Positions 17,355 to 62,439 of a stretch of DNA of 64,000 bases are shown here, piece by piece (positions within the stretch are counted from its first letter, which is position 1; every line of letters starts with the position of its first letter). Both the position numbers and the translations under genes were made by a program. A model generated the notes under the pieces. The model saw nothing but the letters and a program-made list of their open reading frames with translations. It searched no databases and was not told where the DNA came from. Source of the DNA: a virus; the IMG/VR virus record IMGVR_UViG_3300046010_009647, positions 15,500 through 79,499 of that record. One strand, 5' to 3'.

Positions 17355-20176
17355 TAACTAAATCCTTTAAAGAGAGATGTAAATTCACCAAGAATCTTTT
17401 GACCAGACTTAGATTTGTAATCTTCGTCTTTTGTTTCATCTTCAAATAGTTTAAAATAACTAGGCGCAGGTTTTTCTTTTGTTCCAGTAGTACTGGTTTT
17501 TTCTGTATCAAGAAGATTTTGAATGGACAGTAAAGATTCAAAAGGATCCTTACTTGTTAATCCGGCATAACCACCACCCAACTCCAATCCTTTACCACTC
17601 TTACTGAGAAGCTCCATCTCACCTCTATCTATGTCGGGCATAAACTCGGTATAAAAATTATCTTCACTACCTTGGTACCCAGCGCCTTTAAATATCTTGT
17701 AAAGATCTGTCTCATATTTTGAACTTGCTTCTTTTTTGTCTTCCGGACGTTCAATGTATTCAACACCCAGCTCTTCTTGGCTAGGTGTAACTTTCTTTTC
17801 GTTCAAATACTTGATTGATTCACGTATTTGTTTGGCAGCTCCTGTCCTAAAAAATTCAATGATGTACTCCTTGACTTGATCAATCCCCATGTCTTTACTA
17901 CTTAAACCTAATGTTTCAAGCAGCTTGTCCCACTCTTCTTTGTGCTGTTCTGGATCAATTCCTTCAAGTAAACGATCTGCAAATTCTTCTGGTGTGACAA
18001 AGTTTAAAAATGTAACGTCACCAATATTCAATTTTTCATTTGTAATTTCTGGAAGGATTTTGTTTTGGATGTAATCATCGGCATCTTTTAAAGTGATTAA
18101 ATCTTTTGCCGGATCAAACCCATTGGCTGCTCCCTTAACTTGATAGTGGAGTTTTGCGAATTGATTTTTGTCATTGATGTTGAGACCATAATGGTACGCC
18201 CATTGATTCCACGTCCAGTTGGTACCAGGTACCAGGCTGGTAGCACCTTTGTTTCTTGCTTCTTCCCAGTCTTTATTTATTTGTTCTTTTTGCGTTGTAT
18301 ATTTTGTTAACTTTGGGTCATCTTTTTCAAAATTACCTGTGGGATTCCAGTAAAAATCAGCATTGAAGTTCAAAGGCGCAGTACTACGGACGCCATCTAG
18401 GTAAGCCTTGGCCCTTACATCAGCAATGTCTCTTAAAGAATCAAGGGCACTTTGTGTTTGGAAAACGTTTTGTTCATTTTGCTTTACATCCATGTAGCTA
18501 ATGAATTCACTCATTGAACGTGAAGTATCAAACCTTGGTTTCAAGTAGCGATCAATATAGTCTTTTGCAAATTCTGCGTCGACAGTATACGTTTTACTTG
18601 GATCTAATGGATCAGTAACGGTCATGCCTCCTTCATAACCTTTTGTTAGTTCACCATCAAACCATTTTTGCCAGTTATAGACTGCCGTGCTTCTGCTTGG
18701 TATCCCTGTTGCTCTTTCTAGACTCTTTTCTAAACCTTCTTGAATATCTTCTGGATCTCCCATCCAGCCCAATACGCCACCGATACCAGTGTCACCAAGT
18801 AAAGAATTTGCTAAAGACTCATTAACGGCAACGACTTCTTTTAGTCCAGGCAAATTTGTATACATATCAAACGCCTGTTCTTTTTGTTTTGCAATCCTTA
18901 GTTGATTGGCAGCTTTCTTCAGAGAATCGCTTGTTAAAGAACCAAATACTTGCTGTTGTTGTTGTTCCTTTTCCCCTAAAACGCCGGAGAGTCTTCCTTC
19001 TAAATAGGTTGTTCCTTTGTTGACTTTTATCTTGTCACGTAAACGATCAGGAATATAGTCAAGTGTTGGAACAGCTAATGTTCCATTGTCATATTCTTTC
19101 TTTTGATCGCTGGGCAAAGAGCTGTACCATTCTTTTAAAACAGCAGGGTCTTGCGCTTTAGCCCAGTCTTTTATGTTGTCAAACCTATCTGCTAAGCCAA
19201 GAACTTGATCACGATATTGTTGATAATCAGCATCTGTTAGATACTCTTTATAGTTCTCAGTTATGTTTGGACGTTCTGCAGCATTACCGCGATCTCCTGC
19301 AGCCTTTCCTTGTGTTGTGTAGTACCAGTGCAGGTAAGAATCCCTGTTGAATCTACCAACAACATCTAAATCCGGAATGTATTGACCTGCGACGTATAGC
19401 GACGTTTGAGCCTGGTCCCATTGACGTTGCGCTTCTTGTCCACCGTTTGTATTTAGACGATAGTAAGAGGCATCAAAACCACCCGTAGGTGGTTGAGCAC
19501 CTTGTGATCTGCCGTCCCAAGGCGTTACTTTCTTTTGGTAAGAAGCTGATAAGACATTAATTCCATTGTTCTGTACAAGATCAGCAAATTTAACATCTCC
19601 AAGGGAGGATCCAACTCCTTCCATCAGGGACTTGTAATTCCCTGGTTTAGCATTATTAAACTTTGCTACTACATTGTTATAGCTTGAAAGGGCTCCTTGG
19701 CCGATTAAAGAAGAATTAGCAATGAATACATTACCATTACCATCAACGCTTAGTTTTGCACCAGGGAGTACGCGGTCTTCGTTGGAACCTCCCCTTTTGG
19801 TCCAGTGATCTGACCCGTACGCATCGGAAGCGCTTTCATTACTTGCAGGATAACCATTGCGATCCTGGTAGACCATGACAGTGGTATATGAACCACGGCC
19901 ATTTACGCCTGGTTGATCAGGAAAACCATTTGTATTTACAACTTTGGGAGTCGCTCTTCCCTCTCGTGTGCCATAGTCTTGGTAATGCTTGTAACCCCAA
20001 TCCCATTTAGCTACACCTGTTTTTGCGTTTTCGGCTTGCCATGCCGCACTTAAGTCAGGATTTACATCAACATATTGCGCCCAATGAATATTATTTCTAT
20101 CGTTTAACCAGCTATTGTATCCATTCCTAAGATCGCCATAAGTAGATACGTATTCACTAAATAAGCCCATTAGCAC
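17354..20176 (-). CDS. Large putative virion protein, 940 aa
   Basis: Repeated Y..NPDL...HY..YG..EGR-like motifs; late operon context. Confidence 0.6.
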   Translation of the reverse strand: MLMGLFSEYVSTYGDLRNGYNSWLNDRNNIHWAQYVDVNPDLSAAWQAENAKTGVAKWDWGYKHYQDYGTREGRATPKVVNTNGFPDQPGVNGRGSYTTVMVYQDRNGYPASNESASDAYGSDHWTKRGGSNEDRVLPGAKLSVDGNGNVFIANSSLIGQGALSSYNNVVAKFNNAKPGNYKSLMEGVGSSLGDVKFADLVQNNGINVLSASYQKKVTPWDGRSQGAQPPTGGFDASYYRLNTNGGQEAQRQWDQAQTSLYVAGQYIPDLDVVGRFNRDSYLHWYYTTQGKAAGDRGNAAERPNITENYKEYLTDADYQQYRDQVLGLADRFDNIKDWAKAQDPAVLKEWYSSLPSDQKKEYDNGTLAVPTLDYIPDRLRDKIKVNKGTTYLEGRLSGVLGEKEQQQQQVFGSLTSDSLKKAANQLRIAKQKEQAFDMYTNLPGLKEVVAVNESLANSLLGDTGIGGVLGWMGDPEDIQEGLEKSLERATGIPSRSTAVYNWQKWFDGELTKGYEGGMTVTDPLDPSKTYTVDAEFAKDYIDRYLKPRFDTSRSMSEFISYMDVKQNEQNVFQTQSALDSLRDIADVRAKAYLDGVRSTAPLNFNADFYWNPTGNFEKDDPKLTKYTTQKEQINKDWEEARNKGATSLVPGTNWTWNQWAYHYGLNINDKNQFAKLHYQVKGAANGFDPAKDLITLKDADDYIQNKILPEITNEKLNIGDVTFLNFVTPEEFADRLLEGIDPEQHKEEWDKLLETLGLSSKDMGIDQVKEYIIEFFRTGAAKQIRESIKYLNEKKVTPSQEELGVEYIERPEDKKEASSKYETDLYKIFKGAGYQGSEDNFYTEFMPDIDRGEMELLSKSGKGLELGGGYAGLTSKDPFESLLSIQNLLDTEKTSTTGTKEKPAPSYFKLFEDETKDEDYKSKSGQKILGEFTSLFKGFS

Positions 20177-42151: not shown

Positions 42152-45100
42152 CGACTCCGACGTTTACCAGCACGGCGTCCTGCTTGTGCCATAAGTTGTT
42201 GAGTTACAACTTCAAGGCCAGAGGGAAACCTTTGTGGTGAAAAAACAATTTTTTCTGGTTCAACTTTAGCAAGGGCTTGCCTTGTTGATTGCATCTCAGT
42301 GCCAATACGTTGCGGGTCAAGTGCTTGTAATTGTTGGCCGAGGTCACCAAAGCGAAGCGTCATCGGCTTCGAGGGTTGCTGTGTTGTGCCAAGTCGTGTT
42401 CCAACCGAAACTCCTGCTGGATATTGCTGAAGATTGGTTTCAGGTACCAAGTAGAATTCACGTGTGGGTCCAATAATCGGACCGCCGGTGTAAAGAGGTT
42501 TGTTGGCTGGACTGGTGAGCCTACGCTGCTGTTCTGGTGTTTGAGCAGATTTAAGCTCAACAGAACCGTAATAAGCAGACGGCCCTTCCTCTAAGTATGT
42601 ATCTACATCAACGATATCTTCGGAGCCGTAACCAACACGTTCACCCGTAGGTTTACCAGAAAGATCCTTGGGTGAGAACATGACATCCCTTGGAACAGGA
42701 CCCGAAACCCTACGTGTAAGAGAGGGGTCAGCTTGCGAAACACTCCGATAGTTTTTGGGCATTAAGCCTTCTTGTTGTGCAGCGATAAGATCTTCGTTTG
42801 TAATTGGATAAACTTCACCACTCTTGCCAAGGCTTACCAGGTGCCTTTGGGCTGCTGGATTTCCAGGGCGTCCAATAATGCCTTGGACAAATTCGTAAGC
42901 AGTAGGTGACTCAAGAACAGGAAGTTGAATTCCTTTTTCCGAGCGAAGCTCATTTTGAACACGACCCGCAATGCGCACGTTGGCCTGTGGAACCTGGACG
43001 CCTGCTTGGCGGGCAGCTTTAGCAACAGGATTCTCTTTAAGATTTCCACGGCCTGCGGCCATGTTTAAGAAATTATTAATAGACTGAATACTTTCAGTAG
43101 GTACGCCAATCTTGCTGAGGTTTGAAGCTTCACGTTTAGCTTTTGTCAATTCGTCGTTTAATTGACGTTGTGCGCGGATCATGGCATCTTCCATATCAGC
43201 GCGACGAACGCGAGCGGCATAACTGACAGGGTTACCTTCTGTATCTTCAACCTGGAGAGGAGCCTGAACAATTTCATCGGTTGCCTCATAAACATCCGAA
43301 AGGAAGTTATAAGGTTTGCCGTATTGTGAAACGCCTTGTTTCCTGACTTGGCCAACAGGTTGATTAATGGCTGCATTAAGTGCAGTCATTTCTTGTTCAT
43401 AAGCATCGTTAGAAATTAATCCTTGCTTAAGTTGACGCTGTAGATTGCGCTCAGCGCGTTCAACGTTTTTAGATTTAGAAAGCAATCCAGGGATTGCTAC
43501 AGGTTGCGTAGTAATGTAATCAGGATCGTAAGGCTTGCGTCCAATTTTGTATAGATACTCACCGGTTTCCTCACCAGTATCCGATAAACGTGTTAAGTCA
43601 AGATCAGAAACAGTTAAGTTCGTAAGCGTTGGTTCAGACTCTCCGGGGGCAAAAGTAACTCCTTGTGCAATTTTAGTTTGACGACCAGCCTTTGTGGTGT
43701 AAGGGCTGTACTGAATGTTGTACACTTCATCAGGAATTTCTATGTCAGGTGCCCCACCAACTAGGCGCCCTTTCTGAGAACCGCGTCCGGATTGGGGAGT
43801 AATTACCTCACCCGTTGGCGCATCAAAGTACAATCCTTCCTGCAAACCTTCTTGTACATATTTGCTCTGCCCAAGATCACCAACGGTTCTTTCGTATACG
43901 TCGGTTAAAGTACGACCGGTGTCAATGTATTTTTGAGCTTTGACACGAAGTTCCGGCATTTGTTTGCCAAACGCTTCTGCATCTGCAATTGCACGTTCCT
44001 TGTTAACAAGGAAAGGAACTTCAACCTCTACTTTTTCACCTGCTTCAACGCGTCGGATGGTGTCTTCGTCAAGCATTTCGCGGAAGCGCTGTGTTGGATA
44101 CAAGTTACCATCATTGTCGGCTTCAATGCGAGTAGGTATATCTAGGTCATACGCATCAATAGGCCGCACTTCTCGAGAGGGAAAATAAATGCCGGTATCA
44201 GGACCTGCACGATGAAGTGTGTCCCATTCTGTTGCAAATTTATCAATGCCGTATTGATATTGTTCAGAAAGTTTTTCTTGTTTAATTCGACGCGTTTCAA
44301 GGTTTTCTGTCTGACGTGTCAAAAACTCTTGTGGATCAGTTAAAAGAGTTTTTCTAGAGGGGTCGACTGTTTCAACTACCTCAACACCTCCTTCAACGCC
44401 AAACAAATCTTGCAAAGGATCATAGTCGCCCTCTTTAAGTTCAAGAACAGATTCTTTTCCTCCACGGAAAGAACGCCGTACTTCACCTGTGGGATTTACC
44501 AAATCACCTGACACAATACGACCTGTGCGATCAACGTCTGCATTTACAACATTTAGTGCTCTAGCAAAAGCGGTTGGCCCTCCTTCAACAGTTGCAGCAT
44601 TGTAAGAAGGATCCAAGAAGTCGCGGTTACCTGTGTTTGCAAAAGCTTCGATACGAGCATTGATTTCAAACTCAGGCAAGCCGGCTTCACTCAGTTGACT
44701 AAGGGCTGGGCTGACATATTGGGCTTTATCACGACGAGTTAATTGAGCTTCTTTAATATCTCGTTGTTCGTTTTCAACTGTGTTCCTGTAATCTTGTTGA
44801 TCAAAACCTGTGTCATTAGCTTTGTTCTGTTGAGACACAACAGAAGGTGCTTCTTTTTGCTGGAGAGTTGTTAAGTCAACTGTAGCTTGAGGAATTGCAG
44901 CGGGAGGTGCTGCAACTTTTGAAGGGGAAGGAGTCGCACGCAGTGGAGGAGTGGCAGCAACAGTAGAAAGATCAGCTTGCTTAACACCTAACCCTGTTTG
45001 TTTTGTTTGAGAAGGACGACGGCCAGCTAATTTCATAGCGCCATACGTACCAGCGCCCAAAACACCTAAGCCTGCTGCTACAGCACCAAGAATCCCTGGT

Positions 45101-45249
45101 ACATTTGACTCCTCTTGCGGTTGACGAAGCTGATTACGGCGGAATTCAAGTACCTGTGGTGCTAACTCAGCCTTTTCTTCCGGATCTTCGGGGTATGGAG
45201 TCCCAGTGGCACGGCTGTATGCGGCAAAATCGGCAGGTGATAACGCCAT
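42148..45249 (-). CDS. Large putative internal virion protein, 1033 aa
   Basis: MALSPADFAAYSRATG start, one TM-like segment, long hydrophilic body. Confidence 0.6.
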   Translation of the reverse strand: MALSPADFAAYSRATGTPYPEDPEEKAELAPQVLEFRRNQLRQPQEESNVPGILGAVAAGLGVLGAGTYGAMKLAGRRPSQTKQTGLGVKQADLSTVAATPPLRATPSPSKVAAPPAAIPQATVDLTTLQQKEAPSVVSQQNKANDTGFDQQDYRNTVENEQRDIKEAQLTRRDKAQYVSPALSQLSEAGLPEFEINARIEAFANTGNRDFLDPSYNAATVEGGPTAFARALNVVNADVDRTGRIVSGDLVNPTGEVRRSFRGGKESVLELKEGDYDPLQDLFGVEGGVEVVETVDPSRKTLLTDPQEFLTRQTENLETRRIKQEKLSEQYQYGIDKFATEWDTLHRAGPDTGIYFPSREVRPIDAYDLDIPTRIEADNDGNLYPTQRFREMLDEDTIRRVEAGEKVEVEVPFLVNKERAIADAEAFGKQMPELRVKAQKYIDTGRTLTDVYERTVGDLGQSKYVQEGLQEGLYFDAPTGEVITPQSGRGSQKGRLVGGAPDIEIPDEVYNIQYSPYTTKAGRQTKIAQGVTFAPGESEPTLTNLTVSDLDLTRLSDTGEETGEYLYKIGRKPYDPDYITTQPVAIPGLLSKSKNVERAERNLQRQLKQGLISNDAYEQEMTALNAAINQPVGQVRKQGVSQYGKPYNFLSDVYEATDEIVQAPLQVEDTEGNPVSYAARVRRADMEDAMIRAQRQLNDELTKAKREASNLSKIGVPTESIQSINNFLNMAAGRGNLKENPVAKAARQAGVQVPQANVRIAGRVQNELRSEKGIQLPVLESPTAYEFVQGIIGRPGNPAAQRHLVSLGKSGEVYPITNEDLIAAQQEGLMPKNYRSVSQADPSLTRRVSGPVPRDVMFSPKDLSGKPTGERVGYGSEDIVDVDTYLEEGPSAYYGSVELKSAQTPEQQRRLTSPANKPLYTGGPIIGPTREFYLVPETNLQQYPAGVSVGTRLGTTQQPSKPMTLRFGDLGQQLQALDPQRIGTEMQSTRQALAKVEPEKIVFSPQRFPSGLEVVTQQLMAQAGRRAGKRRSR

Positions 45250-45369
45250 TTGGAACTTATGAGCTATAGATTTCTTGTTATCTGTATTTTAACGGGAATA
45301 ATTTAGAAAAAGCTGCGTACGTTAGACTATTACCAAGAGAAAACGCTAAACACCTGGGGAAATACAGAC

Positions 45370-45607: not shown

Positions 45608-45634
45608 GCCGGGGCTAAATACCCCGGCATTTTT
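45608..45634 (+). terminator. Rho-independent terminator
   Basis: GCCGGGG/CCCCGGC stem plus ATTTTT. Confidence 0.8.
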
Positions 45635-46454: not shown

Positions 46455-46652
46455 GTGGACTACACCGTCAACATCATCGAGCGTAACGGTCAGTACTTCC
46501 TCCAAGAAGTCTTTGCAGTTACTGAGTTCCAGTATGTGGAACAAGTGACTGCAGGTCCGTTCCAAGCTCGATGGCAAGCAGACGTGCGACGCTCACAGGA
46601 GTATCCGGCATACCGGGGACTAACTGATGAGTACTGCCGTCTGCAACACTGA
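46455..46652 (+). CDS. Early hypothetical protein
   Basis: GGAG RBS, GTG start. Confidence 0.6.
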   Translation: MDYTVNIIERNGQYFLQEVFAVTEFQYVEQVTAGPFQARWQADVRRSQEYPAYRGLTDEYCRLQH

Positions 46653-46716
46653 TCCGTTAAAGCGGGTTGGGAGGTGCAAACCCTCCCACAGTTATTGCCC
46701 CCAGCGGAGATGGGCA
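46648..46716 (+). ncRNA. Family C T-loop three-way junction plus hairpin
   Basis: ACTG/CAGT, CCG-TTAAAG-CGG, TGGGAGG-TGCAAAC-CCTCCCA, TGCCC/GGGCA. Confidence 0.65.
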
Positions 46717-46736
46717 CCGCACACACGGAGAACACC

Positions 46737-46817
46737 GTGACCTTCACCGTTACCGAAACACTCGCACTCGCCGCCATCTTTGTGGTGGCATGTGTGATCG
46801 GTTACGTTACCGACTGA
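46737..46817 (+). CDS. 26-aa single-TM peptide
   Basis: GGAG plus GTG; MTFTVTETLALAAIFVVACVIGYVTD. Confidence 0.6.
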   Translation: MTFTVTETLALAAIFVVACVIGYVTD

Positions 46818-46878
46818 TCCGTCTAAGCGGGAGGCAGGGTGCAAACCCCTGCCCAGTCATTGCCACAATCCCGTGGCA
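46812..46878 (+). ncRNA. Family C T-loop three-way junction plus hairpin
   Basis: GACTG/CAGTC, CCG-TCTAAG-CGG, GGCAGGG-TGCAAAC-CCCTGCC, TGCCAC/GTGGCA. Confidence 0.7.
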
Positions 46879-46894
46879 TCTACACCAAACGACA

Positions 46895-47074
46895 GTGACT
46901 CAACGCATTGCAACCTACGTGATCATCGCTGCTTCCATCATGGGTATTGGTGGGCAAGCCGTTATCTACTTCACAGATAAGGCAACTGCTCACCAATGCA
47001 TTAACCATGACTGGCCTAAGGAGCATGACACACTCCACCGTAACTGGTGCATCACCAACGGTTACGACATCTGA
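46895..47074 (+). CDS. Small membrane-anchored protein
   Basis: GTG start MTQRIATYVIIAASIMGIGG...; Cys pair. Confidence 0.6.
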   Translation: MTQRIATYVIIAASIMGIGGQAVIYFTDKATAHQCINHDWPKEHDTLHRNWCITNGYDI

Positions 47075-47137
47075 GTCCGTTTAAGCGGCGTTCCAGGGTG
47101 CAATTCCCTGGTTCAGTATTGCCACAACTCAGTGGCA
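47071..47137 (+). ncRNA. Family C T-loop three-way junction plus hairpin
   Basis: CTGA/TCAG, CCG-TTTAAG-CGG, CCAGGG-TGCAATT-CCCTGG, TGCCAC/GTGGCA. Confidence 0.7.
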
Positions 47138-47153
47138 TCTCACGACACTACCT

Positions 47154-47315
47154 ATGACTTACTACGTCATCATCAAGAATCACGACGAATTCTCTCAGGC
47201 TTATCTCCAGGGCTGTGAGCAATCATTTAATACTGAGCAACAAGCTCAGGATTACATTCAAACATTTGAGGATTGGGAGCAAGATCTCCTGGAGATTGAC
47301 TTCAATCCTTTCTGA
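47154..47315 (+). CDS. Small acidic protein, 53 aa
   Basis: MTYYVIIKNHDEF...FNTEQQAQDYI...DFNPF. Confidence 0.6.
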   Translation: MTYYVIIKNHDEFSQAYLQGCEQSFNTEQQAQDYIQTFEDWEQDLLEIDFNPF

Positions 47316-47376
47316 GTAACAGGCGTGATGCCAGGGGATCAAATCCCCTACTCAGTATTGCCACAATCCCGTGGCA
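47312..47376 (+). ncRNA. Family C T-loop three-way junction plus hairpin
   Basis: CTGAGT/ACTCAG, GGCG/TGCC, AGGGG-ATCAAAT-CCCCT, TGCCAC/GTGGCA. Confidence 0.65.
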
Positions 47377-47394
47377 TTTACTCAACTCAACACT

Positions 47395-47643
47395 ATGCTG
47401 TGCTACTACCCATACGAAGGTGCAACCGAGCGCATCACCTGGCATGGAGGAGAATCAACCATGCTTCACTACCAAGTGCAGGTTGATGACTACAAGGGAG
47501 ATCCTGACTGGATCGACCGTTACTCCCAGACACTTGGCGGAGGTATCCCTTGTGGTACTAAGGAGTTATTAGCTGCTATGTCTGATTACTATCAGCACAT
47601 CAGCCAACTCCATCTCGACACAATGGCTGGAACTATCTTCTGA
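47395..47643 (+). CDS. Early hypothetical protein
   Basis: ATG after CTCAACTCAACACT linker. Confidence 0.6.
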   Translation: MLCYYPYEGATERITWHGGESTMLHYQVQVDDYKGDPDWIDRYSQTLGGGIPCGTKELLAAMSDYYQHISQLHLDTMAGTIF

Positions 47644-47644
47644 T

Positions 47645-47692
47645 TCCTGCTCTAAGGGGCTTCGGCCCTTTACTGCAGGATTCAACTCCTGC
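47645..47692 (+). ncRNA. Family D two-state hairpin
   Basis: TCCTGC...GCAGGA...TCCTGC with inner TTCG hairpin. Confidence 0.5.
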
Positions 47693-47711
47693 TCCCATAC
47701 CACACAACACC

Positions 47712-47903: not shown

Positions 47904-48119
47904 ATGCGACGCAACTACCAACGTAACTACTTCTCTGACTCCTGTGTTGCTATTGTTCTCGGCACTGGTCTTGGCTTATTCCTATCTGTTGGAGCACAGA
48001 AAGTTCTCAACAGACACTACAAGGCCACGTGCCACAACCAACCAGGACATAACCTGATCTACACCAAGTCTTTCCTTGGTGACACGTACTTTTGCATCAA
48101 TGCAAAGTACATGAACTGA
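47904..48119 (+). CDS. Small membrane-anchored protein
   Basis: TM helix, Cys pair. Confidence 0.6.
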   Translation: MRRNYQRNYFSDSCVAIVLGTGLGLFLSVGAQKVLNRHYKATCHNQPGHNLIYTKSFLGDTYFCINAKYMN

Positions 48120-48120
48120 T

Positions 48121-48181
48121 CTCTGCACTTAAGCCTTCTCATCCTTGTGATGCGTGGCTTTTCTGCAGGGTTCTCCCTGCA
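48121..48181 (+). ncRNA. Family D two-state hairpin
   Basis: CTCTGCA...TGCAGGG...CCCTGCA with inner AAGCC/GGCTT. Confidence 0.5.
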
Positions 48182-48199
48182 CTACACCAAACAACACCA

Positions 48200-49052: not shown

Positions 49053-49105
49053 CCCTGGGCCTTCGTTGTTGAGAATCTTTCGCAACAAGGATGTAAGTCC
49101 CAGGG
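49053..49105 (+). ncRNA. Family A bulged-stem RNA motif
   Basis: CCCTGGG...long variable stem...TG-TAAGT-CCCAGGG. Confidence 0.65.
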
Positions 49106-49133
49106 CTATCCCAAACACCACAGCAACTAACCA

Positions 49134-49508
49134 ATGCGTACTCGAATTTCAATCGTCAAAGAAGATAGGATCTGGAACCTGAGGTGCCAGGGCTATCGTT
49201 ATGACTCCATTGCACAAATTGTTAATTGCAAACCGGTATCCATTACACAAGTCATTAGACGTGTACGTAACCGTCCTCCGTACGAGCAAGATCCTGTGCG
49301 TCGTGGAAGATTTAATTCTTTCTTGAGCGATGCACAGATAGAAGATATTCGTACCCGTAAAGCGCACGGAGAACACGTCTCCAAACTTGCAGAAGAATAC
49401 TACATCACTATTGCAGCTATCTATCACATCACTTCATACCGCACCTACAAGAACCCTTGTGGTGACAGTGGTTATCAATTCAATTTTAACAATCGTTTAA
49501 TGTCCTGA
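49134..49508 (+). CDS. Tandem HTH DNA-binding protein
   Basis: GYRYDSIAQIVNC and VSKLAEEYYIT..AIYHI HTH-like segments. Confidence 0.65.
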   Translation: MRTRISIVKEDRIWNLRCQGYRYDSIAQIVNCKPVSITQVIRRVRNRPPYEQDPVRRGRFNSFLSDAQIEDIRTRKAHGEHVSKLAEEYYITIAAIYHITSYRTYKNPCGDSGYQFNFNNRLMS

Positions 49509-49510
49509 TC

Positions 49511-49548
49511 ACTGGGCATCCACACGCAATGTGGTGTAAGTCCCAAGT
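49511..49548 (+). ncRNA. Family A bulged-stem RNA motif
   Basis: TGGG-CA-T-CCACA-CGCAA-TGTGG-TG-TAAGT-CCCA. Confidence 0.7.
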
Positions 49549-49572
49549 ACAAACCATTCAACTCACAACACA

Positions 49573-49779
49573 ATGACAGAAGACAACAAGCGGTATCACC
49601 TCATCATCAACGTTGATGAAAAGTATGCCATCGTCAACGCACTAGCCTTCTATCATGCACACCACACCCTGGGTGCATTGATGGATGAAGATGAGTGTGA
49701 ACAATACATGCTCGCATTCCAAGAAGATGGTCCTGCCTTTGTTGATTCCCTAGCAACAAAGGTGGCCAATACCTTCTGA
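49573..49779 (+). CDS. Early hypothetical protein
   Basis: ORF track. Confidence 0.6.
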   Translation: MTEDNKRYHLIINVDEKYAIVNALAFYHAHHTLGALMDEDECEQYMLAFQEDGPAFVDSLATKVANTF

Positions 49780-49780
49780 T

Positions 49781-49823
49781 CCCTGGGCAGCACCGACGTA
49801 AATACGGTGTGTAAGTCCCAGGG
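49781..49823 (+). ncRNA. Family A bulged-stem RNA motif
   Basis: CCCTGGG-CA-G-CACCG-loop-CGGTG-TG-TAAGT-CCCAGGG. Confidence 0.75.
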
Positions 49824-49852
49824 TTTTACTGTCTACCTACTCAATTCAAGCA

Positions 49853-49990
49853 ATGACTGAACTCGATCCCAACTACAACGCTGACTTGCTTGATGCCATG
49901 GCTGACATGGCATATGAACAAGAGCAAGCCATGCGTGAAGAATACGAACTCAACCCACCTGAACTGGAGACTTACGATGACCAAGCCTAA
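49853..49990 (+). CDS. Very acidic 45-aa peptide
   Basis: MTELDPNYNADLLDAMADMAYEQEQAMREEYELNPPELETYDDQA. Confidence 0.55.
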   Translation: MTELDPNYNADLLDAMADMAYEQEQAMREEYELNPPELETYDDQA

Positions 49991-50077
49991 GTACACACTG
50001 CGTCAAGCATGGGATGACGGTGACATCATCATCATCCTGATCGCAATCATTTCAATCATCATCACAGAGTTTGCATC

Positions 50078-50446
50078 ATGTCTTACATCTCAGAACTCAA
50101 GAAGTTCTACCCCAAGTCCTACAAAGCACGCTTCGCAATCAATGCCTACAACGTGCACAAGTACTTCGAGCACAAAGACCCAACGGTCGTCACGGTCCAC
50201 GAAACCTATCTCAGGTACGGCGGAACCGAAGAAGGAGGTTGGTACTACACCCAAGGAGACCCTCTCGTCAGCCACTGCATCTTCTCCAAGAGGCAAGCGG
50301 TCCAGGTCTACGTCAAGTACTTCGAAGAGTACGAGATCGAAGGCCAACCTTCTCTTGGAGATACGACAACTCGATCCAACATCGACATCAGTTTCTCCAA
50401 TGAACTAGCTAAGGCTTACCCTGAATCCCGTCCGTACTACTGCTGA
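50078..50446 (+). CDS. Conserved phage hypothetical protein
   Basis: YGGTEEGGWYY...YPESRPYYC. Confidence 0.7.
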   Translation: MSYISELKKFYPKSYKARFAINAYNVHKYFEHKDPTVVTVHETYLRYGGTEEGGWYYTQGDPLVSHCIFSKRQAVQVYVKYFEEYEIEGQPSLGDTTTRSNIDISFSNELAKAYPESRPYYC

Positions 50447-50449
50447 TCA

Positions 50450-50692
50450 ATGCAAGCAACTGCAACACCTGCACTCAGTATCAACCAACGCAATCTCTAT
50501 GCGTACTACCTTAATCACAAGAAGAAGTATGGGAACACACCCTGCTTCGTACCTAAGCTTCCATCGCAAAACTCAAGGCTTGAGCAATATCTCCAGGCCT
50601 TGGTGAGACTGGAAGAATACGGATTGATACGTGTAGACAGAAGCAGTGCTAACTACACAGCATGGATCATGCTTGCACCTAAGAGCGCATAA
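50450..50692 (+). CDS. Winged-helix-like protein
   Basis: LSINQRNLY...ALVRLEEYGLIRV. Confidence 0.6.
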   Translation: MQATATPALSINQRNLYAYYLNHKKKYGNTPCFVPKLPSQNSRLEQYLQALVRLEEYGLIRVDRSSANYTAWIMLAPKSA

Positions 50693-50769
50693 CGTAGGTA
50701 TTTATACTTAATATTGTTCGCTATTCGCAAATAGCGAATACATGCCAATACTTCAGTCATAGCCTCAAT

Positions 50770-50810
50770 CCTGGGCGTCACCTACGTAAGTATGGTGTGT
50801 AAGTCCCAGG
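50770..50810 (+). ncRNA. Family A bulged-stem RNA motif
   Basis: CCTGGG-CG-T-CACC-loop-GGTG-TG-TAAGT-CCCAGG. Confidence 0.75.
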
Positions 50811-50813
50811 GGT

Positions 50814-51041
50814 TTATCCGACTACATTACGTACATCAGGTGTAAACCGTTGCATCTGATCTAACAACCTAAGCTCTGCTTGTTTGTTCTGCATCGGAAT
50901 GCTTTCATTCCGTACAACAGATGTTAAGAAGTCCATTACTTTATCTTGTGGTGGCATAGAACCATGAGCCTTCATGTATTCTTGTTGCCATCCTTGAAGG
51001 AAAGGACTGTTATTCATTGCATATCTACCAGCTAATAACAT
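50814..51041 (-). CDS. Late-type small protein in opposite orientation
   Basis: MLLAGRYAMNN...; TAGGAT -10 box upstream on the minus strand. Confidence 0.55.
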   Translation of the reverse strand: MLLAGRYAMNNSPFLQGWQQEYMKAHGSMPPQDKVMDFLTSVVRNESIPMQNKQAELRLLDQMQRFTPDVRNVVG

Positions 51042-51070
51042 GGACCTAAGTATGTCCTTAAACTGCTCAG
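51042..51070 (+). ncRNA. Family B H-type pseudoknot
   Basis: GGAC-CTAAGTAT-GTCC-TTAAAC-TGCTCAG. Confidence 0.65.
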
Positions 51071-51097
51071 TCCATCCTACTCACCATCAACTCAACC

Positions 51098-51385
51098 ATG
51101 GAACAAGCTAAGAAGTATCCAGCAATTGACTGGACCAAGAATGAGTATCATCAATTGCAGCTAGTAGTTGATGCACTCAAAGCCATTTGTGCTCGCGAAG
51201 ATAAGCGTCATCAAATGGACGAGCATCTCGATCCACACATGCGTAACGTTGTCGATGAGGTAATCGGCATGTTAGAAGATGAGATCGACTACGATCCAAC
51301 ACCTCACGAACCTGGTGAACCACCCATCACTGCAGCAGAAATGCATGCAGCTGCATGGAAAGAACACCAGGAAATGCATCGATAA
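51098..51385 (+). CDS. Early hypothetical protein
   Basis: DYDPT..GEPPIT..EMH..AW motif. Confidence 0.65.
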   Translation: MEQAKKYPAIDWTKNEYHQLQLVVDALKAICAREDKRHQMDEHLDPHMRNVVDEVIGMLEDEIDYDPTPHEPGEPPITAAEMHAAAWKEHQEMHR

Positions 51386-51558
51386 CATCAGGTAGTACAC
51401 ATGTATTTCCCCCTCACACTCCCCCAAGGAGAACCAGGGGGGAACCTTCTATATACATAAGTACTTCCTATGCATTACATCTTTTAATACACCAATTAAT
51501 CCTTGACAACCCTGGTAGACTAACCAAGTCTTCTAGACCACACATCAATTCAACTCAC

Positions 51559-51768
51559 ATGACAAACTCAAACACTCCTCGCATTCCTGATTCAATTGAC
51601 ATCCAACGTCTTCAAGCTATGCAGCTTGTAGCCAAGATGAAAGAATCAGCTGAGAAACATGGCATTGGTTTTATCGGGGGCTTTATATCCCCCAATGGAG
51701 AGAAATTTGTAATGACAAACATGGATGATGATGATGCCATAGCACTCATGCCGGAGGATCTCAAGTGA
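51559..51768 (+). CDS. Early hypothetical protein
   Basis: ATG after TCAACTCAC. Confidence 0.6.
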   Translation: MTNSNTPRIPDSIDIQRLQAMQLVAKMKESAEKHGIGFIGGFISPNGEKFVMTNMDDDDAIALMPEDLK

Positions 51769-51962
51769 CCAAGAAATCTCCCATTAGTTTTGATCGCACC
51801 ATTCATGGTGTGAACATCACTGAACATGGTATCAAGTCAGTAAGTAAACAGATCAAACTTGGACCATTCCAACTGACTGTCAACGCCAGTCCCAATGGCG
51901 TCAAAGGATCAGTCAGTATTCCTGGCACAGGCTTGAGCATTCCAAACATTAAGTTAATCTAA
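51765..51962 (+). CDS. DUF4236-like protein
   Basis: KQIKLGPFQLTVN.S..G...SVSIPGTGLS. Confidence 0.6.
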   Translation: MTKKSPISFDRTIHGVNITEHGIKSVSKQIKLGPFQLTVNASPNGVKGSVSIPGTGLSIPNIKLI

Positions 51963-51999
51963 AGATCTGGGCATCCTTACGGTGTAAGTCCCAGGTCTT
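51962..51999 (+). ncRNA. Family A bulged-stem RNA motif (minimal)
   Basis: AAGATCTGGG-CA-T-CC-TTAC-GG-TG-TAAGT-CCCAGGTCTT. Confidence 0.75.
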
Positions 52000-52021
52000 G
52001 TCCACCAACTCAACTCAATTC

Positions 52022-54370: not shown

Positions 54371-54580
54371 ATGGACTACACCGATGACCAACTGCTTGCC
54401 ATGGCCATGGCCAACATTGGTGAATACATCACGGACAACTCACCACAGTACATCTTGATTGAAGAAGATCCTCGTAATGAGGATGACTACGATAGCTGGA
54501 CTTACGGAATGGAAGTCCTACCTCAAGACCACACTTGGCAGTCAGATTCAATTGACGTAAGTCCAAGTGAGGCCGACTAG
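54371..54580 (+). CDS. Acidic hypothetical protein
   Basis: ORF; 3' end overlaps an RNA motif and the tRNA 5' end. Confidence 0.55.
   Translation: MDYTDDQLLAMAMANIGEYITDNSPQYILIEEDPRNEDDYDSWTYGMEVLPQDHTWQSDSIDVSPSEAD
54532..54569 (+). ncRNA. Family A bulged-stem RNA motif abutting the tRNA
   Basis: CACTTGG-CA-GTCAG-ATTCAA-TTGAC-G-TAAGT-CCAAGTG. Confidence 0.7.
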
Positions 54581-60159: not shown

Positions 60160-61960
60160 TCGGTACCTTGTCTTTGACCTCGAGAGTGATGGTCTTTATG
60201 ACAAGGTTACCAAGATCCATTGCATTGTGATCTATGACATCACAGCCAACCAAACTTTTAGTTATGGGCCTGATCGCATTACTGATGCTATTGCTCATCT
60301 GGCAACCGCTGATGTTTTGATAGGCCATAACATTTGTTTTTATGACGTACCAGTTCTGCAAAAGCTGCATTCATTTGACTGCAAATCACGCATCATTGAC
60401 ACACTCATTTGCACACGATTGATCTGGCCCAAGGAGAAACTCTATGACCTTGACATCGAACAATATCCGCAGGTTCCACCGAACCAGCGAGGTGCTGCAT
60501 CCCTTAAGGCATGGGGATGGAGACTGGCCGATCACAAGATCAGCTTCAAAGACTTCTCGGAATATTCTGAGGAGATGTTGGAATACTGCAAACAAGACGT
60601 TGCAGTTACAACAAAACTCTGGGCGCACATCGTTAAAGAGAACTATCCAGAACCAGCTCTTAAGCTTGAGCACGACTTTGCTCTCGCCATTAACAAACAA
60701 ATTAGAGCAGGTGTTCCTTTTGATGTGGATGCATGTCTTGATCTTGTGGATGATCTCCGAGCAAAACAAACAGAACTTGAAACACATTTGAAAGAAATCT
60801 TTCCACCACTTGCGCATCGCACTTGGTTTACTCCCAAGGTCAACAATCAGAAACGTGGCTATGTCAAAGGAGTGCCCTTTGAAAAAGTGCGGCATGAAGA
60901 ATTCAATCCTGGATCTCGTGACCAGATTGTTAATCGACTTAAGGCTAAGTACGGATGGGAACCAGAAAAGACAACTGAAAAAGGAAATCCAATCCTTAAT
61001 GATGAAGTGTTAGAGGCGTTGCCTTATCCAGAAGCCAAGCCTCTGGCAGAATACATGCTCATCCAGAAACGTCTTGGTCAAATTGCAGATGGCAACAACG
61101 CTTGGCTCAAGCTGGTTAATAATGACAGCGGTTGTATGCACGGTGACGTTATTACTAACGGCTGCGTCACTGGTCGTTGTGCTCACCGATACCCAAATAT
61201 GGGTCAGGTGCCAGCGGGTTATTCGCCATACGGCAAAGAATGTCGGTCATTATTTCATGCGCCACAAGGATGGGACATGATCGGTATTGATGCCAAAGCA
61301 TTGGAGCTGCGTTGTCTTGCTGGCTATCTTGCCTTGTGGGATGGCGGTGAGTACGCACGTGTTGTAACAGATCCAGAGATTGATATCCACGTTTACAACC
61401 AAGAGCGTTTTGGTGTGGCTACCAGGGACATCAGCAAGCGTTTGCTGTATGCCGTGTTGTATGGCGCTGGTCACCTCAAGGCTGGCAGCATTGTGGATCC
61501 GAATGAAAAAGATGAAGAAGTTCTGCGTGAACTAGGAAGAACTGCAATTAATTCATTCATGACTGGTGTGCCAGCATTGAAGAAACTAAAGCAACAGATC
61601 GACAGTTACATTGCACATCGTGGCTATCTCATTGGATTAGATAAGCGCATCTTGTATTGTCGTTCTGCATTCAAGGGATTGAATGTGTTGTTGCAATCAG
61701 CAGGTGCAATTCTTATGAAGCAAGTTGTTATTAACATTCATAACAACATTGAACAGAACCTTGGCTTGATTCACGGCAAAGACTGGGAGCAAGTCCTGAT
61801 GGTGCACGACGAATGCCAGTTGGTTTGTAAGCCGCAATACACAGGGCGTATCCGTGACCAAGCCATGGCAGCTTTTCCACAGGCACAGAAATTCTTTGGC
61901 TTCTTGTGTCCGCTTGAGGGGGATGCTAGAGTTGGGTCGAATTGGAACGAAACCCATTAA
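60137..61960 (+). CDS. polA: T7-like family A DNA polymerase with 3'-5' exonuclease
   Basis: Exo FDLESD, GHNI..YD, YCKQD; motif A DAKALELR, motif B KRLLYAVLYG (Tyr at the 762-equivalent), motif C VHDE. Confidence 0.97.
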   Translation: MNPGSVNDRYLVFDLESDGLYDKVTKIHCIVIYDITANQTFSYGPDRITDAIAHLATADVLIGHNICFYDVPVLQKLHSFDCKSRIIDTLICTRLIWPKEKLYDLDIEQYPQVPPNQRGAASLKAWGWRLADHKISFKDFSEYSEEMLEYCKQDVAVTTKLWAHIVKENYPEPALKLEHDFALAINKQIRAGVPFDVDACLDLVDDLRAKQTELETHLKEIFPPLAHRTWFTPKVNNQKRGYVKGVPFEKVRHEEFNPGSRDQIVNRLKAKYGWEPEKTTEKGNPILNDEVLEALPYPEAKPLAEYMLIQKRLGQIADGNNAWLKLVNNDSGCMHGDVITNGCVTGRCAHRYPNMGQVPAGYSPYGKECRSLFHAPQGWDMIGIDAKALELRCLAGYLALWDGGEYARVVTDPEIDIHVYNQERFGVATRDISKRLLYAVLYGAGHLKAGSIVDPNEKDEEVLRELGRTAINSFMTGVPALKKLKQQIDSYIAHRGYLIGLDKRILYCRSAFKGLNVLLQSAGAILMKQVVINIHNNIEQNLGLIHGKDWEQVLMVHDECQLVCKPQYTGRIRDQAMAAFPQAQKFFGFLCPLEGDARVGSNWNETH

Positions 61961-62439
61961 TGACAACGGAAGAAGCTCAAGAATTATTTGAGTACAAAAA
62001 CGGATTTTTGTATTGGAAAAAATCTGGCAGTGGAAGAAAATTAAATAAACCAGTTGGCTGTATAGATACTAAAGGTTATGCTGTTTGCAGGGTAAAAAAT
62101 AAACAATGGAAATTGCACCGTCTTATTTGGGTTTGGCATGGAAACGAATTAGATTCTAATAAACAAATTGATCACATTGATCGTAATCCATTAAATAATA
62201 AAATAGAAAATTTGCGTTTAGTAACTCCTTTAGAGAATCGCCAAAACAATGGTGGAAAATTTGTTAAATTAAAAAAGAAAGACAGATGGCAATGGTGGGA
62301 AGCGTATACTCCAAGAACTGGAAACAAGCCTGCAAAAACTATCGGTTGTTATAAAACCAAAAAAGAAGCTGAAGAAGCTGTGAGGCTTTACTTTGAAGGC
62401 GACTCTCGTGTAGGATCCTCATGGGCTGAAACCCACTAA
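61960..62439 (+). mobile_element. HNH(-AP2-like) homing endonuclease fused to a duplicated polA C-terminus
   Basis: LHRLIW..IDHIDRNPLNNKIENLR; ends EGDSRVGSSWAETH, like polA EGDARVGSNWNETH; AT-rich. Confidence 0.9.

Follow-up and report, generated by a model that had tools for sequence, protein, structure and literature searches.

Tandem tRNA-like three-way junctions that hold the stop codons of small genes in an S-EIVl-related phage

In a 64,000-nucleotide stretch of a virus genome (IMG/VR record IMGVR_UViG_3300046010_009647), several small open reading frames (ORFs) end inside a repeated fold, which raises the questions of what the fold is and what it does for the genes on either side. The stretch, hereafter the window, comprises bases 15500–79499 of the 79,499-bp record. 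An initial annotation of the window, made from its letters, described four tandem tRNA-elbow-like three-way junctions (here W1 to W4), each starting on a TGA stop codon, and proposed that they are tRNA mimics that recruit RNase P or RNase Z, decoys for anticodon- or tRNA-sensing defences, or cassette joints. All four units were found where they had been described, on the plus strand, and the observation extends to relatives beyond the window. The units proved to be copies of a conserved RNA-level motif with the geometry of a tRNA minihelix; that they serve to divide the message is our tentative reading.

A conserved junction that contains the upstream stop codon

Every unit opens N-C-T-G-A and continues, in order, with a short hairpin (P2), a GC stem with a 7-nt loop (P3), the 3' strand of the closing stem (P1), TATT or CATT, and a second module (module 2). 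The three-way junction itself is a unit of about 47 nt. P2 is TCCGT-nnAA-GCGG in W1–W3 and GGC/GCC in W4. As had been claimed, P1 includes the upstream TGA: the triplets at 46650, 46815, 47072 and 47313 are the stop codons of ORFs of 65, 26, 59 and 53 aa (ORF1 to ORF4), respectively. The loops singled out as T-loop-like, TGCAAAC (W1 and W2), TGCAATT (W3) and ATCAAAT (W4), were also present. The account of what follows the junction held in part, in that TATT or CATT follows each unit and a TGCCAC-N6-GTGGCA hairpin stands behind W2, W3 and W4, but W1 carries a different module. The parts are as follows, with scores from the covariance model described below.

46648–46692, plus strand: W1 three-way junction; P1 ACTG/CAGT (46648–51/46689–92), P2 at 46653–46666; 79.4 bits
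46668–74/46682–88, plus strand: P3 of W1, with loop TGCAAAC
46693–46720, plus strand: W1 linker TATT and module 2, with GCCC/GGGC and GCGG/CCGC helices in a predicted pseudoknot arrangement
46812–46858, plus strand: W2 three-way junction; P1 GACTG/CAGTC (46812–16/46854–58), P3 GGCAGGG/CCCTGCC, loop TGCAAAC; 77.5 bits
46859–46878, plus strand: W2 linker ATT and hairpin TGCCAC-AATCCC-GTGGCA
47071–47116, plus strand: W3 three-way junction; P1 CTGAG/TTCAG (47071–75/47112–16), P3 CCAGGG/CCCTGG, loop TGCAATT; 51.6 bits
47117–47137, plus strand: W3 linker TATT and hairpin TGCCAC-AACTCA-GTGGCA
47312–47355, plus strand: W4 three-way junction; 6-bp P1 CTGAGT/ACTCAG (47312–17/47350–55), P2 GGC/GCC; 35.8 bits
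within 47312–47355, plus strand: P3 of W4, AGGGG/CCCCT, 5 bp, with loop ATCAAAT
47356–47376, plus strand: W4 linker TATT and hairpin TGCCAC-AATCCC-GTGGCA

The 16-base pattern CTGATCCGTNNAAGCGGG matched at least 119 stretches of IMG/VR contigs, and the whole junction was present in 131 of 140 pattern matches (among the matches listed). From the pattern matches 105 distinct copies were aligned (alignment A1), and a covariance model was built from A1. With E values of 4e-23 to 4e-9, W1 to W4 scored 79, 77, 52 and 36 bits in this model; neither the window nor the 79.5-kb genome as a whole holds a further copy, and the next best match reaches 11.8 bits. In the loci of 100 relatives the model found 205 copies, always in same-strand clusters with a spacing of about 165–750 nt; four complete genomes of about 80 kb have 2–4 copies each in a single cluster. 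Related IMG/VR phage contigs with the motif number more than 110, and in every one it forms arrays on a single strand, interspersed with small ORFs.

The fold is supported by the pattern of change among these copies. In A1, standard pairs fill 99.2% of cells, as against 31–52% when the partners are slid and 82% in column shuffles, and 10 of the 15 pairs show changes on both sides. Covariation is seen at six of the seven P3 pairs, with three to five pair types, and at the two outer P1 pairs, the outermost of which is A-U, G-U, G-C or C-G depending on the copy. In 79% of copies the closing stem gains a fifth pair, which joins the initial base of the final sense codon to the U that follows CAGN and likewise shows double changes. 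The invariance of P2 in A1 comes from the search pattern, which prescribed its sequence; among the copies found with the model, P2 is CCAG/CTGG, TTCG/CGAA or GGC/GCC, or is absent. When the units were folded as single sequences they were better than shuffles (z −1.7 to −4.0), and the three-way junction was the minimum-energy fold for W2 and for one copy of Synechococcus phage S-EIVl. G-U pairs occupy about 10% of cells, including an invariant U-G in P2, and all non-pairs together about 2%. Since the G-U pairs would be A-C mismatches on the opposite strand, the fold is strand-specific; all copies at a locus are oriented as the flanking ORFs are. The motif is a sense-strand, RNA-level feature.

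The stop codon is a regular part of this fold. In 122 of 131 pattern matches (again among the matches listed), the TGA within the opening CTGA closes a long upstream ORF in frame, the median open length being about 85 codons in that frame versus about 10 in the others, and a stop codon lies in P1 in 123 of 149 model matches. In about 85–90% of copies both the upstream stop and the last sense codon are inside P1. All 105 copies have C immediately before the stop, and the last sense codon, wholly in the stem, is mostly of the form R-N-C (AGC, AAC, GAC, GCC or GGC). Six copies have TAA at the stop position together with TTAG in place of CAG on the 3' strand, and so stop and pairing are both kept.

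The downstream start lies 52–99 nt (median 81) behind the stop, with a weak preference of phase relative to it (56:44:33 over 133 copies). Two ways of passing the stop were considered and rejected. Readthrough fusing neighbouring ORFs might be entertained for W1, which is in frame with ORF2, yet the phases over the 133 copies do not bear it out. Translational bypass in the style of T4 gene 60 was discarded when the last sense codon was found to recur downstream in 58 of 133 copies, as against 59.8 expected from shuffled codons.

Likeness to the acceptor/T-arm half of tRNA

The acceptor stem (7 bp) and T stem (5 bp) of tRNA stack into a 12-bp helix. In the phage element P1 and P3 add up to 12 bp in 93 of the 141 distinct copies; in 134 the sum is 11–13 bp. 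P3 and P1 compensate each other in length: the main type has 7+5, the W3 type 6+6, and the W4 type 5+6 or 5+7. The loop has 7 nt in 138 of the 141 copies. In A1 its closing pair is G-C in 105 of 105 copies, and this pair and the loop consensus U(A)-G/U-C-R-A-N-N together supply the equivalents of G53, U54, C56, R57, A58 and C61. Divergent copies have textbook T loops (TTCGATT, TTCGACT, TTCAAGT and ATCGAAT), one of which lies inside GGGGTTCGATTCCCC, and in some copies the T-loop region reads GGTTCGATTCC. On the 3' side of the stack come A in 92 of 105 copies (88%), U in 104 (99%) and U in 100 (95%), and then the R-C-C that opens module 2; this side is a discriminator-like A and a trailer without CCA. 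The features of a minihelix, namely a coaxial helix of about 12 bp with a 7-nt T-loop, the T-loop invariants, and an unpaired discriminator with a CCA-less trailer, are all present. The junction copies the acceptor/T-arm half of a tRNA, and the side hairpin takes the place of the D and anticodon arms. The tRNA likeness noted initially is thus real, and the 12-bp stack, the loop invariants and the A behind the stack make it stronger than the initial annotation could tell.

The element is not a tRNA. It shares with the tRNA family (RF00005) the 12-bp stack, the 7-nt loop, G53-C61, C56, R57, A58 and the A behind the stack, but it lacks the D and anticodon arms, overlaps a coding end and is missed by tRNA models. 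ARAGORN found only a tRNA-Leu at 54571 in the window and none of the four units, and the Rfam tRNA model (cmscan, E ≤ 10) gave no match on the four units or on the copies with canonical T loops.

What would such a half-tRNA do between genes? The explanation that we prefer, at somewhat less than even chances, is that it punctuates an early polycistronic mRNA, a host nuclease cutting the AUU linker, and that the repeated elements also act as recombination joints. The closing stem of about 5 bp would stack on the 7-bp GC stem with its 7-nt T-loop to form the minihelix. A host endonuclease would then cut the A-UU linker, either RNase Z, which reads the acceptor/T-arm and would cut after the discriminator, or RNase E, for which AUU between structures would be the site. 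The upstream cistron would retain its stop codon and gain a tRNA-like 3' cap, and the downstream cistron would begin about 2 free nt before a 5' hairpin, the classic layout of a 5' stabilizer. Each small gene would in this way become a self-contained, insulated expression cassette and, because the joints are repeated, they would double as points of homologous exchange at which cassettes are shuffled. Given the minihelix shape, the discriminator-like A, the presence of UU rather than CC, and a second structure at a fixed 4 nt, a processing-and-capping signal fits best.

The choice of enzyme is less secure, and RNase Z in particular has roughly half the likelihood that we give to cutting as a whole. 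Cyanobacterial tRNA genes mostly lack an encoded CCA and depend on RNase Z. The RNase E consensus is RAUUW or RN-WUU, which AUU between two structures fits equally. The contacts of RNase Z are to the T-arm and acceptor stem and do not involve the D or anticodon arms; it cuts right behind the discriminator, where a following C is inhibitory (PMC7479834). The proposed recruitment of RNase P was weakened by the anatomy, as a cut at the 5' side of the closing stem would strip the upstream gene of its last sense codon and stop. A cut on the 3' side, by RNase Z or RNase E, therefore fits better.

Several observations weigh against division of the message by tRNA enzymes. Some RNase Z enzymes require a mature 5' end (PMC7479834), which an element embedded in mRNA lacks. 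Position 55 of the loop is mostly G, where tRNA has U. The compensation of stem lengths stems from just two or three sublineages and is therefore suggestive rather than statistical proof of a ruler. RNAalifold alone predicts the P2 and P3 hairpins and not the short closing stem, so P1 rests on covariation (the two outer pairs and the CTAA/TTAG compensation) and not on energy. A genome of about 80 kb has only 2–4 copies. Between other genes the same phage has unrelated folds, so that the function may be a generic one of stability or insulation, independent of tRNA enzymes.

A bolder form of the punctuation proposal would liken the array to the tRNA punctuation of mitochondria, with host tRNA-maturation enzymes parsing the early polycistron of a double-stranded DNA (dsDNA) phage at miniature tRNA mimics and the joints letting small early genes be freely exchanged across a widespread cyanophage lineage. 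Translation would control the processing, since a terminating ribosome has to open the acceptor-like stem, which is made of the stop and last codon. We consider this version rather unlikely. Systems comparable to the phage element are mascRNA at the MALAT1 3' end, the t-elements of plant mitochondria (PMC1920247), and mitochondrial tRNA punctuation, in all of which a partial tRNA shape lies between functional units of a longer transcript, the acceptor/T-arm stack and T-loop being kept; RNase P and RNase Z can read such shapes and make mRNA ends. The phage element differs in belonging to the early operon of a dsDNA cyanophage, in its size of about 47 nt with one side hairpin, in having a stop codon in the acceptor-like stem and a second fixed hairpin or pseudoknot behind, and in that its cleavage is only predicted. 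Phages themselves offer a second comparison, the RNase III sites between the early genes of T7 and the RNase E site upstream of T4 gene 32. There, too, host endonuclease sites in polycistronic early mRNA leave protective structures on the products, and the T4 site has an AUU core adjoining a hairpin. Those sites involve a long bulged hairpin, whereas ours is a three-way junction with a T-loop, and the enzyme is here only a candidate.

The same geometry might instead make the element a binding site or decoy for a factor that recognizes the acceptor/T-arm, such as a phage translational regulator, a host tRNA-modifying or CCA-adding enzyme, or a tRNA-targeting defence nuclease; in a variant, RNase P and RNase Z together would release a tRNA-like RNA of about 50 nt. 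Conservation of P2 and of the loop sequence beyond what pairing needs would suit a bound partner. Against such a role, the element has no anticodon arm, and release by RNase P would deprive the upstream mRNA of its final codon and stop. No gene for a candidate partner was found, the small ORFs that flank the joints belonging to no PHROG or Pfam family. We judge a binding or decoy role quite improbable. Decoys for anticodon nucleases, as suggested in the initial annotation, are not expected in view of the missing anticodon arm, and the failure of ARAGORN and the Rfam tRNA model to detect the elements points the same way.

Module 2 and the leader of the downstream gene

Module 2 always starts 4 nt past the stack and is present in essentially all copies; behind it come an unstructured, C/A-rich leader and the start of the next gene. 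Of 150 copies, 66 have the W1 type, 53 a CCAC hairpin type and 31 other hairpins. The W1 type (46696–46720; 59 relatives, alignment A3) has two interleaved helices with a conserved GGAGAU between them. Both helices covary, helix 1 as GCCC/GGGC, ACCC/GGGU or GCCU/AGGC and helix 2 as GCGG/CCGC, GUGG/CCAC or GCAG/CUGC, and 99.2% of cells are paired versus 28–45% when slid. The arrangement may be either a pseudoknot or two alternative hairpins, that is, a two-state switch before the ribosome-binding site, a reading for which there is room because the loop between the helices is short. Behind W1 itself, module 2 is followed by GGAG (46727–30) and a GTG start at 46737. A GGAG-type Shine-Dalgarno sequence stands just before the start in 20 of 64 W1-type copies, W1 included. 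Behind hairpin-type modules a Shine-Dalgarno-like motif was found in 0 of 51 copies, and the leader is instead G-poor and C/A-rich.

These leaders bring up an explanation without cleavage, in which the element is a translation-gated insulator or coupler. A ribosome at the UGA would melt P1 and P2, which cover roughly the next 16 nt, and leave the T-arm hairpin intact; the folds would hold the C/A-rich leader of the downstream gene in single-stranded form irrespective of the cassette in front of the joint, and upstream translation might tune downstream initiation. The burial of stop and last sense codon in P1 accords with this reading, as do the placement of P2, which occupies the 14 nt after the UGA, the narrow stop-to-start distance, the Shine-Dalgarno-less leaders behind hairpin-type modules, and the occurrence of several unrelated folds at the same kind of position in this phage. 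It leaves unexplained the T-loop invariants, the 12-bp ruler and the conserved A-UU, and a coupler sits poorly with a start phase that is only weakly preferred. Insulation without cutting is, in our estimate, unlikely.

A junction in front of a hairpin and ribosome-binding region also recalls the layout of the synthetic RiboJ, and an undescribed self-cleaving ribozyme with an insulating hairpin would account for the three-way form and the highly conserved junction and P2. But divergent members retain the T-arm and P1 although P2 is missing, the hammerhead core (CUGANGA ... GAA) is absent, and in Rfam 15 no family, known ribozymes included, was found at the elements at the gathering threshold or at E ≤ 10. 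The chance of a ribozyme seems very slim indeed. The hammerhead was rejected by reading the sequence, in which CUGAU is followed by CC rather than GA and there is no GAA strand. An intrinsic terminator was rejected as well, for the P3 hairpin is followed by the 3' strand of P1 and no U run.

Cassette exchange, distribution and genome setting

The ORFs that end in the joints vary greatly. Among 142 upstream ORFs there are 51 families, and family order is permuted between contigs (0-1 versus 1-0; 3-7 versus 2-7). In one relative (L053) the cassette of ORF1 is located behind the W3 equivalent, in a second (L026) ORF4 alone is replaced (47141–47332), and a third (L051) has other sequence in place of the ORF2-W2-ORF3 block (46734–47071). 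A comparison of cassette order across related genomes had been suggested as a check, and it came out as the idea of cassette joints would have it: order differs and similarity breaks at the elements. P3 sequence is barely linked to the flanking ORF family (modal share 0.41 and 0.33), and module-2 type goes with the downstream ORF (0.79) slightly more closely than with the upstream ORF (0.70). Of the roles suggested initially, tRNA mimicry and cassette joints are the parts that found support; RNase P and the anticodon decoy did not.

Might the elements be mainly DNA-level recombination joints, with the RNA fold secondary? The PeSL elements of T4-type phages, which combine a terminator-like stem-loop with an early promoter, mediate documented cassette shuffling (PMC2839356, PMC4122927). 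Like the joints described here, they are short intergenic repeats that flank small, variable early genes and coincide with swap breakpoints. The variety and permuted order of the flanking ORFs and the breaks in similarity to the nearest relatives at the elements are what such joints would produce, and repeats do stand at the gene-swap breakpoints between relatives. Recombination, however, favours identical sequence, and P3 is hypervariable yet always compensated, which argues for selection on the fold and against repeats that exist only as recombination homology. The G-U pairs make the fold strand-specific, and the phage motif is a covarying tRNA-like junction holding a stop codon, unlike a PeSL; neither an early sigma-70 promoter nor a terminator-like stem-loop occurs in 46640–47400. 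That recombination is the main function is highly unlikely. Shuffling as a by-product of the repeats is well supported, and it is better read as their consequence than as their function. An integron attC joint was rejected: by eye the consensus has no GTTRRRY core, whereas attC requires R''/R' (RYYYAAC/GTTRRRY) and IntI. A partial scan of 10 larger window proteins found no integrase.

The motif is essentially phage-only. Among 185,579 prokaryote genomes, one per species, there were 122 pattern matches, of which only 5, on 3 contigs, had the whole motif; the rest equal the number expected by chance. With real copies limited to three short contigs, an origin in host genomes was rejected. Two of these contigs, of 4–5 kb and from cyanobacterial and pond metagenome-assembled genomes (MAGs), look like mis-binned phage DNA. 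The third, the 20-kb DATGKW010000021 from a Ktedonobacteraceae MAG (L231; soil Chloroflexota), has three GC-rich copies (CCTGATCCGTCCAAGCGGG ... CAGGCCAT) near the contig end, at about 18800–19720, and nowhere else in the 4.9-Mb MAG. These copies may place the motif beyond cyanophages, or may again be mis-binned phage DNA. Among GenBank phages, S-EIVl alone was matched, at its own two copies, which lie on the minus strand of KJ410740 at 43447–43503 and 43741–43797. S-EIVl (KJ410740, 79,178 bp, from a high-arctic lake) is also the sole DNA-level relative of the window in GenBank, and its match to the window falls exactly on three-way junction units.

No description of the motif was found in Rfam or in the literature searched, though the 2023 catalogue of structured RNAs from IMG/VR, with 8,495 unnamed candidates (PMC10690425), could contain it. 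Processing signals of tRNA-like form and repeat-mediated shuffling of cassettes are each known separately. What is new is that the two occur together in a dsDNA phage operon, that the junction has a miniature three-way form, and that its acceptor-like stem incorporates the stop codon. If the elements are cut, a widespread and little-studied lineage of freshwater cyanophages divides and protects its early messages by miniature tRNA mimics, a device known from organelles and a few eukaryotic non-coding RNAs and so far undescribed for a dsDNA phage operon. The clean covariation and the built-in ruler allow sharp predictions of where ends should fall and of how they should shift with stem length. 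The motif also provides a concrete entry point, at the level of sequence, to the way in which small host-takeover genes are shuffled by phages, and might be of use as a 47-nt insulator or processing part for synthetic operons in cyanobacteria or as a metagenome marker for S-EIVl-like phages.

In the window, a minus-strand gene of 1033 aa terminates at 45249, and plus-strand small ORFs run on from about 45.3 kb. Downstream of them lie PcfJ-like, ThyX, GP88, family-A DNA polymerase, HNH and SSB genes. Because the small uncharacterized ORFs sit upstream of replication genes, we read the cluster as early genes. The genes of the array are as follows.

46455–46652, plus strand: ORF1, 65 aa, no known family; last codon CAC and TGA within the closing stem of W1
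46737–46817, plus strand: ORF2, 26-aa hydrophobic peptide; GAC-TGA end inside W2
46895–47074, plus strand: ORF3, 59 aa, GTG start, homologue of an S-EIVl ORF; ATC-TGA end inside W3
47154–47315, plus strand: ORF4, 53 aa; TTC-TGA end inside W4
47395–47643, plus strand: ORF5, 82 aa, the gene served by the downstream module of W4

No sigma-70-like promoter or terminator-like site was found within 46640–47400, and so the four array genes probably share one transcript. On the plus strand of 45.2–48.3 kb, the only sigma-70-like promoter match is at 45275–45302 and the only terminator-like hairpin with a T run is at 45608–45628, both upstream of the array.

Two of the array ORFs deserve comment. ORF2 (46737–46817) is strongly hydrophobic, has its own GGAG and GTG start, and belongs to one of the commonest cassette families in the relatives (17 members). 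The homologue of ORF3 in S-EIVl (L001 3475–3663) ends ...ATK-TAA and has no such joint behind it, and ORF3 of the window ends ...YDI-TGA within W3; the C-terminus of ORF3 appears to adapt to the joint. Farther on, an HNH endonuclease ORF (61942–62436) lies directly behind the family-A DNA polymerase gene and overlaps its end.

Other folds were noted behind the array. The next two intergenic regions, 47640–47711 and 48117–48190, also open on C-TGA and have a T-loop-like hairpin, GCAGGA-TTCAAC-TCCTGC, the 5' arm of which has an alternative upstream pairing; these folds may be related to the junction design. At 49092, 49529, 49804, 50792 and 51977, on the plus strand of 49090–52000, a further intergenic fold recurs, CCTGGGC ... 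GTGTAAGTCCCAGG, in many cases with T-rich sequence behind it.

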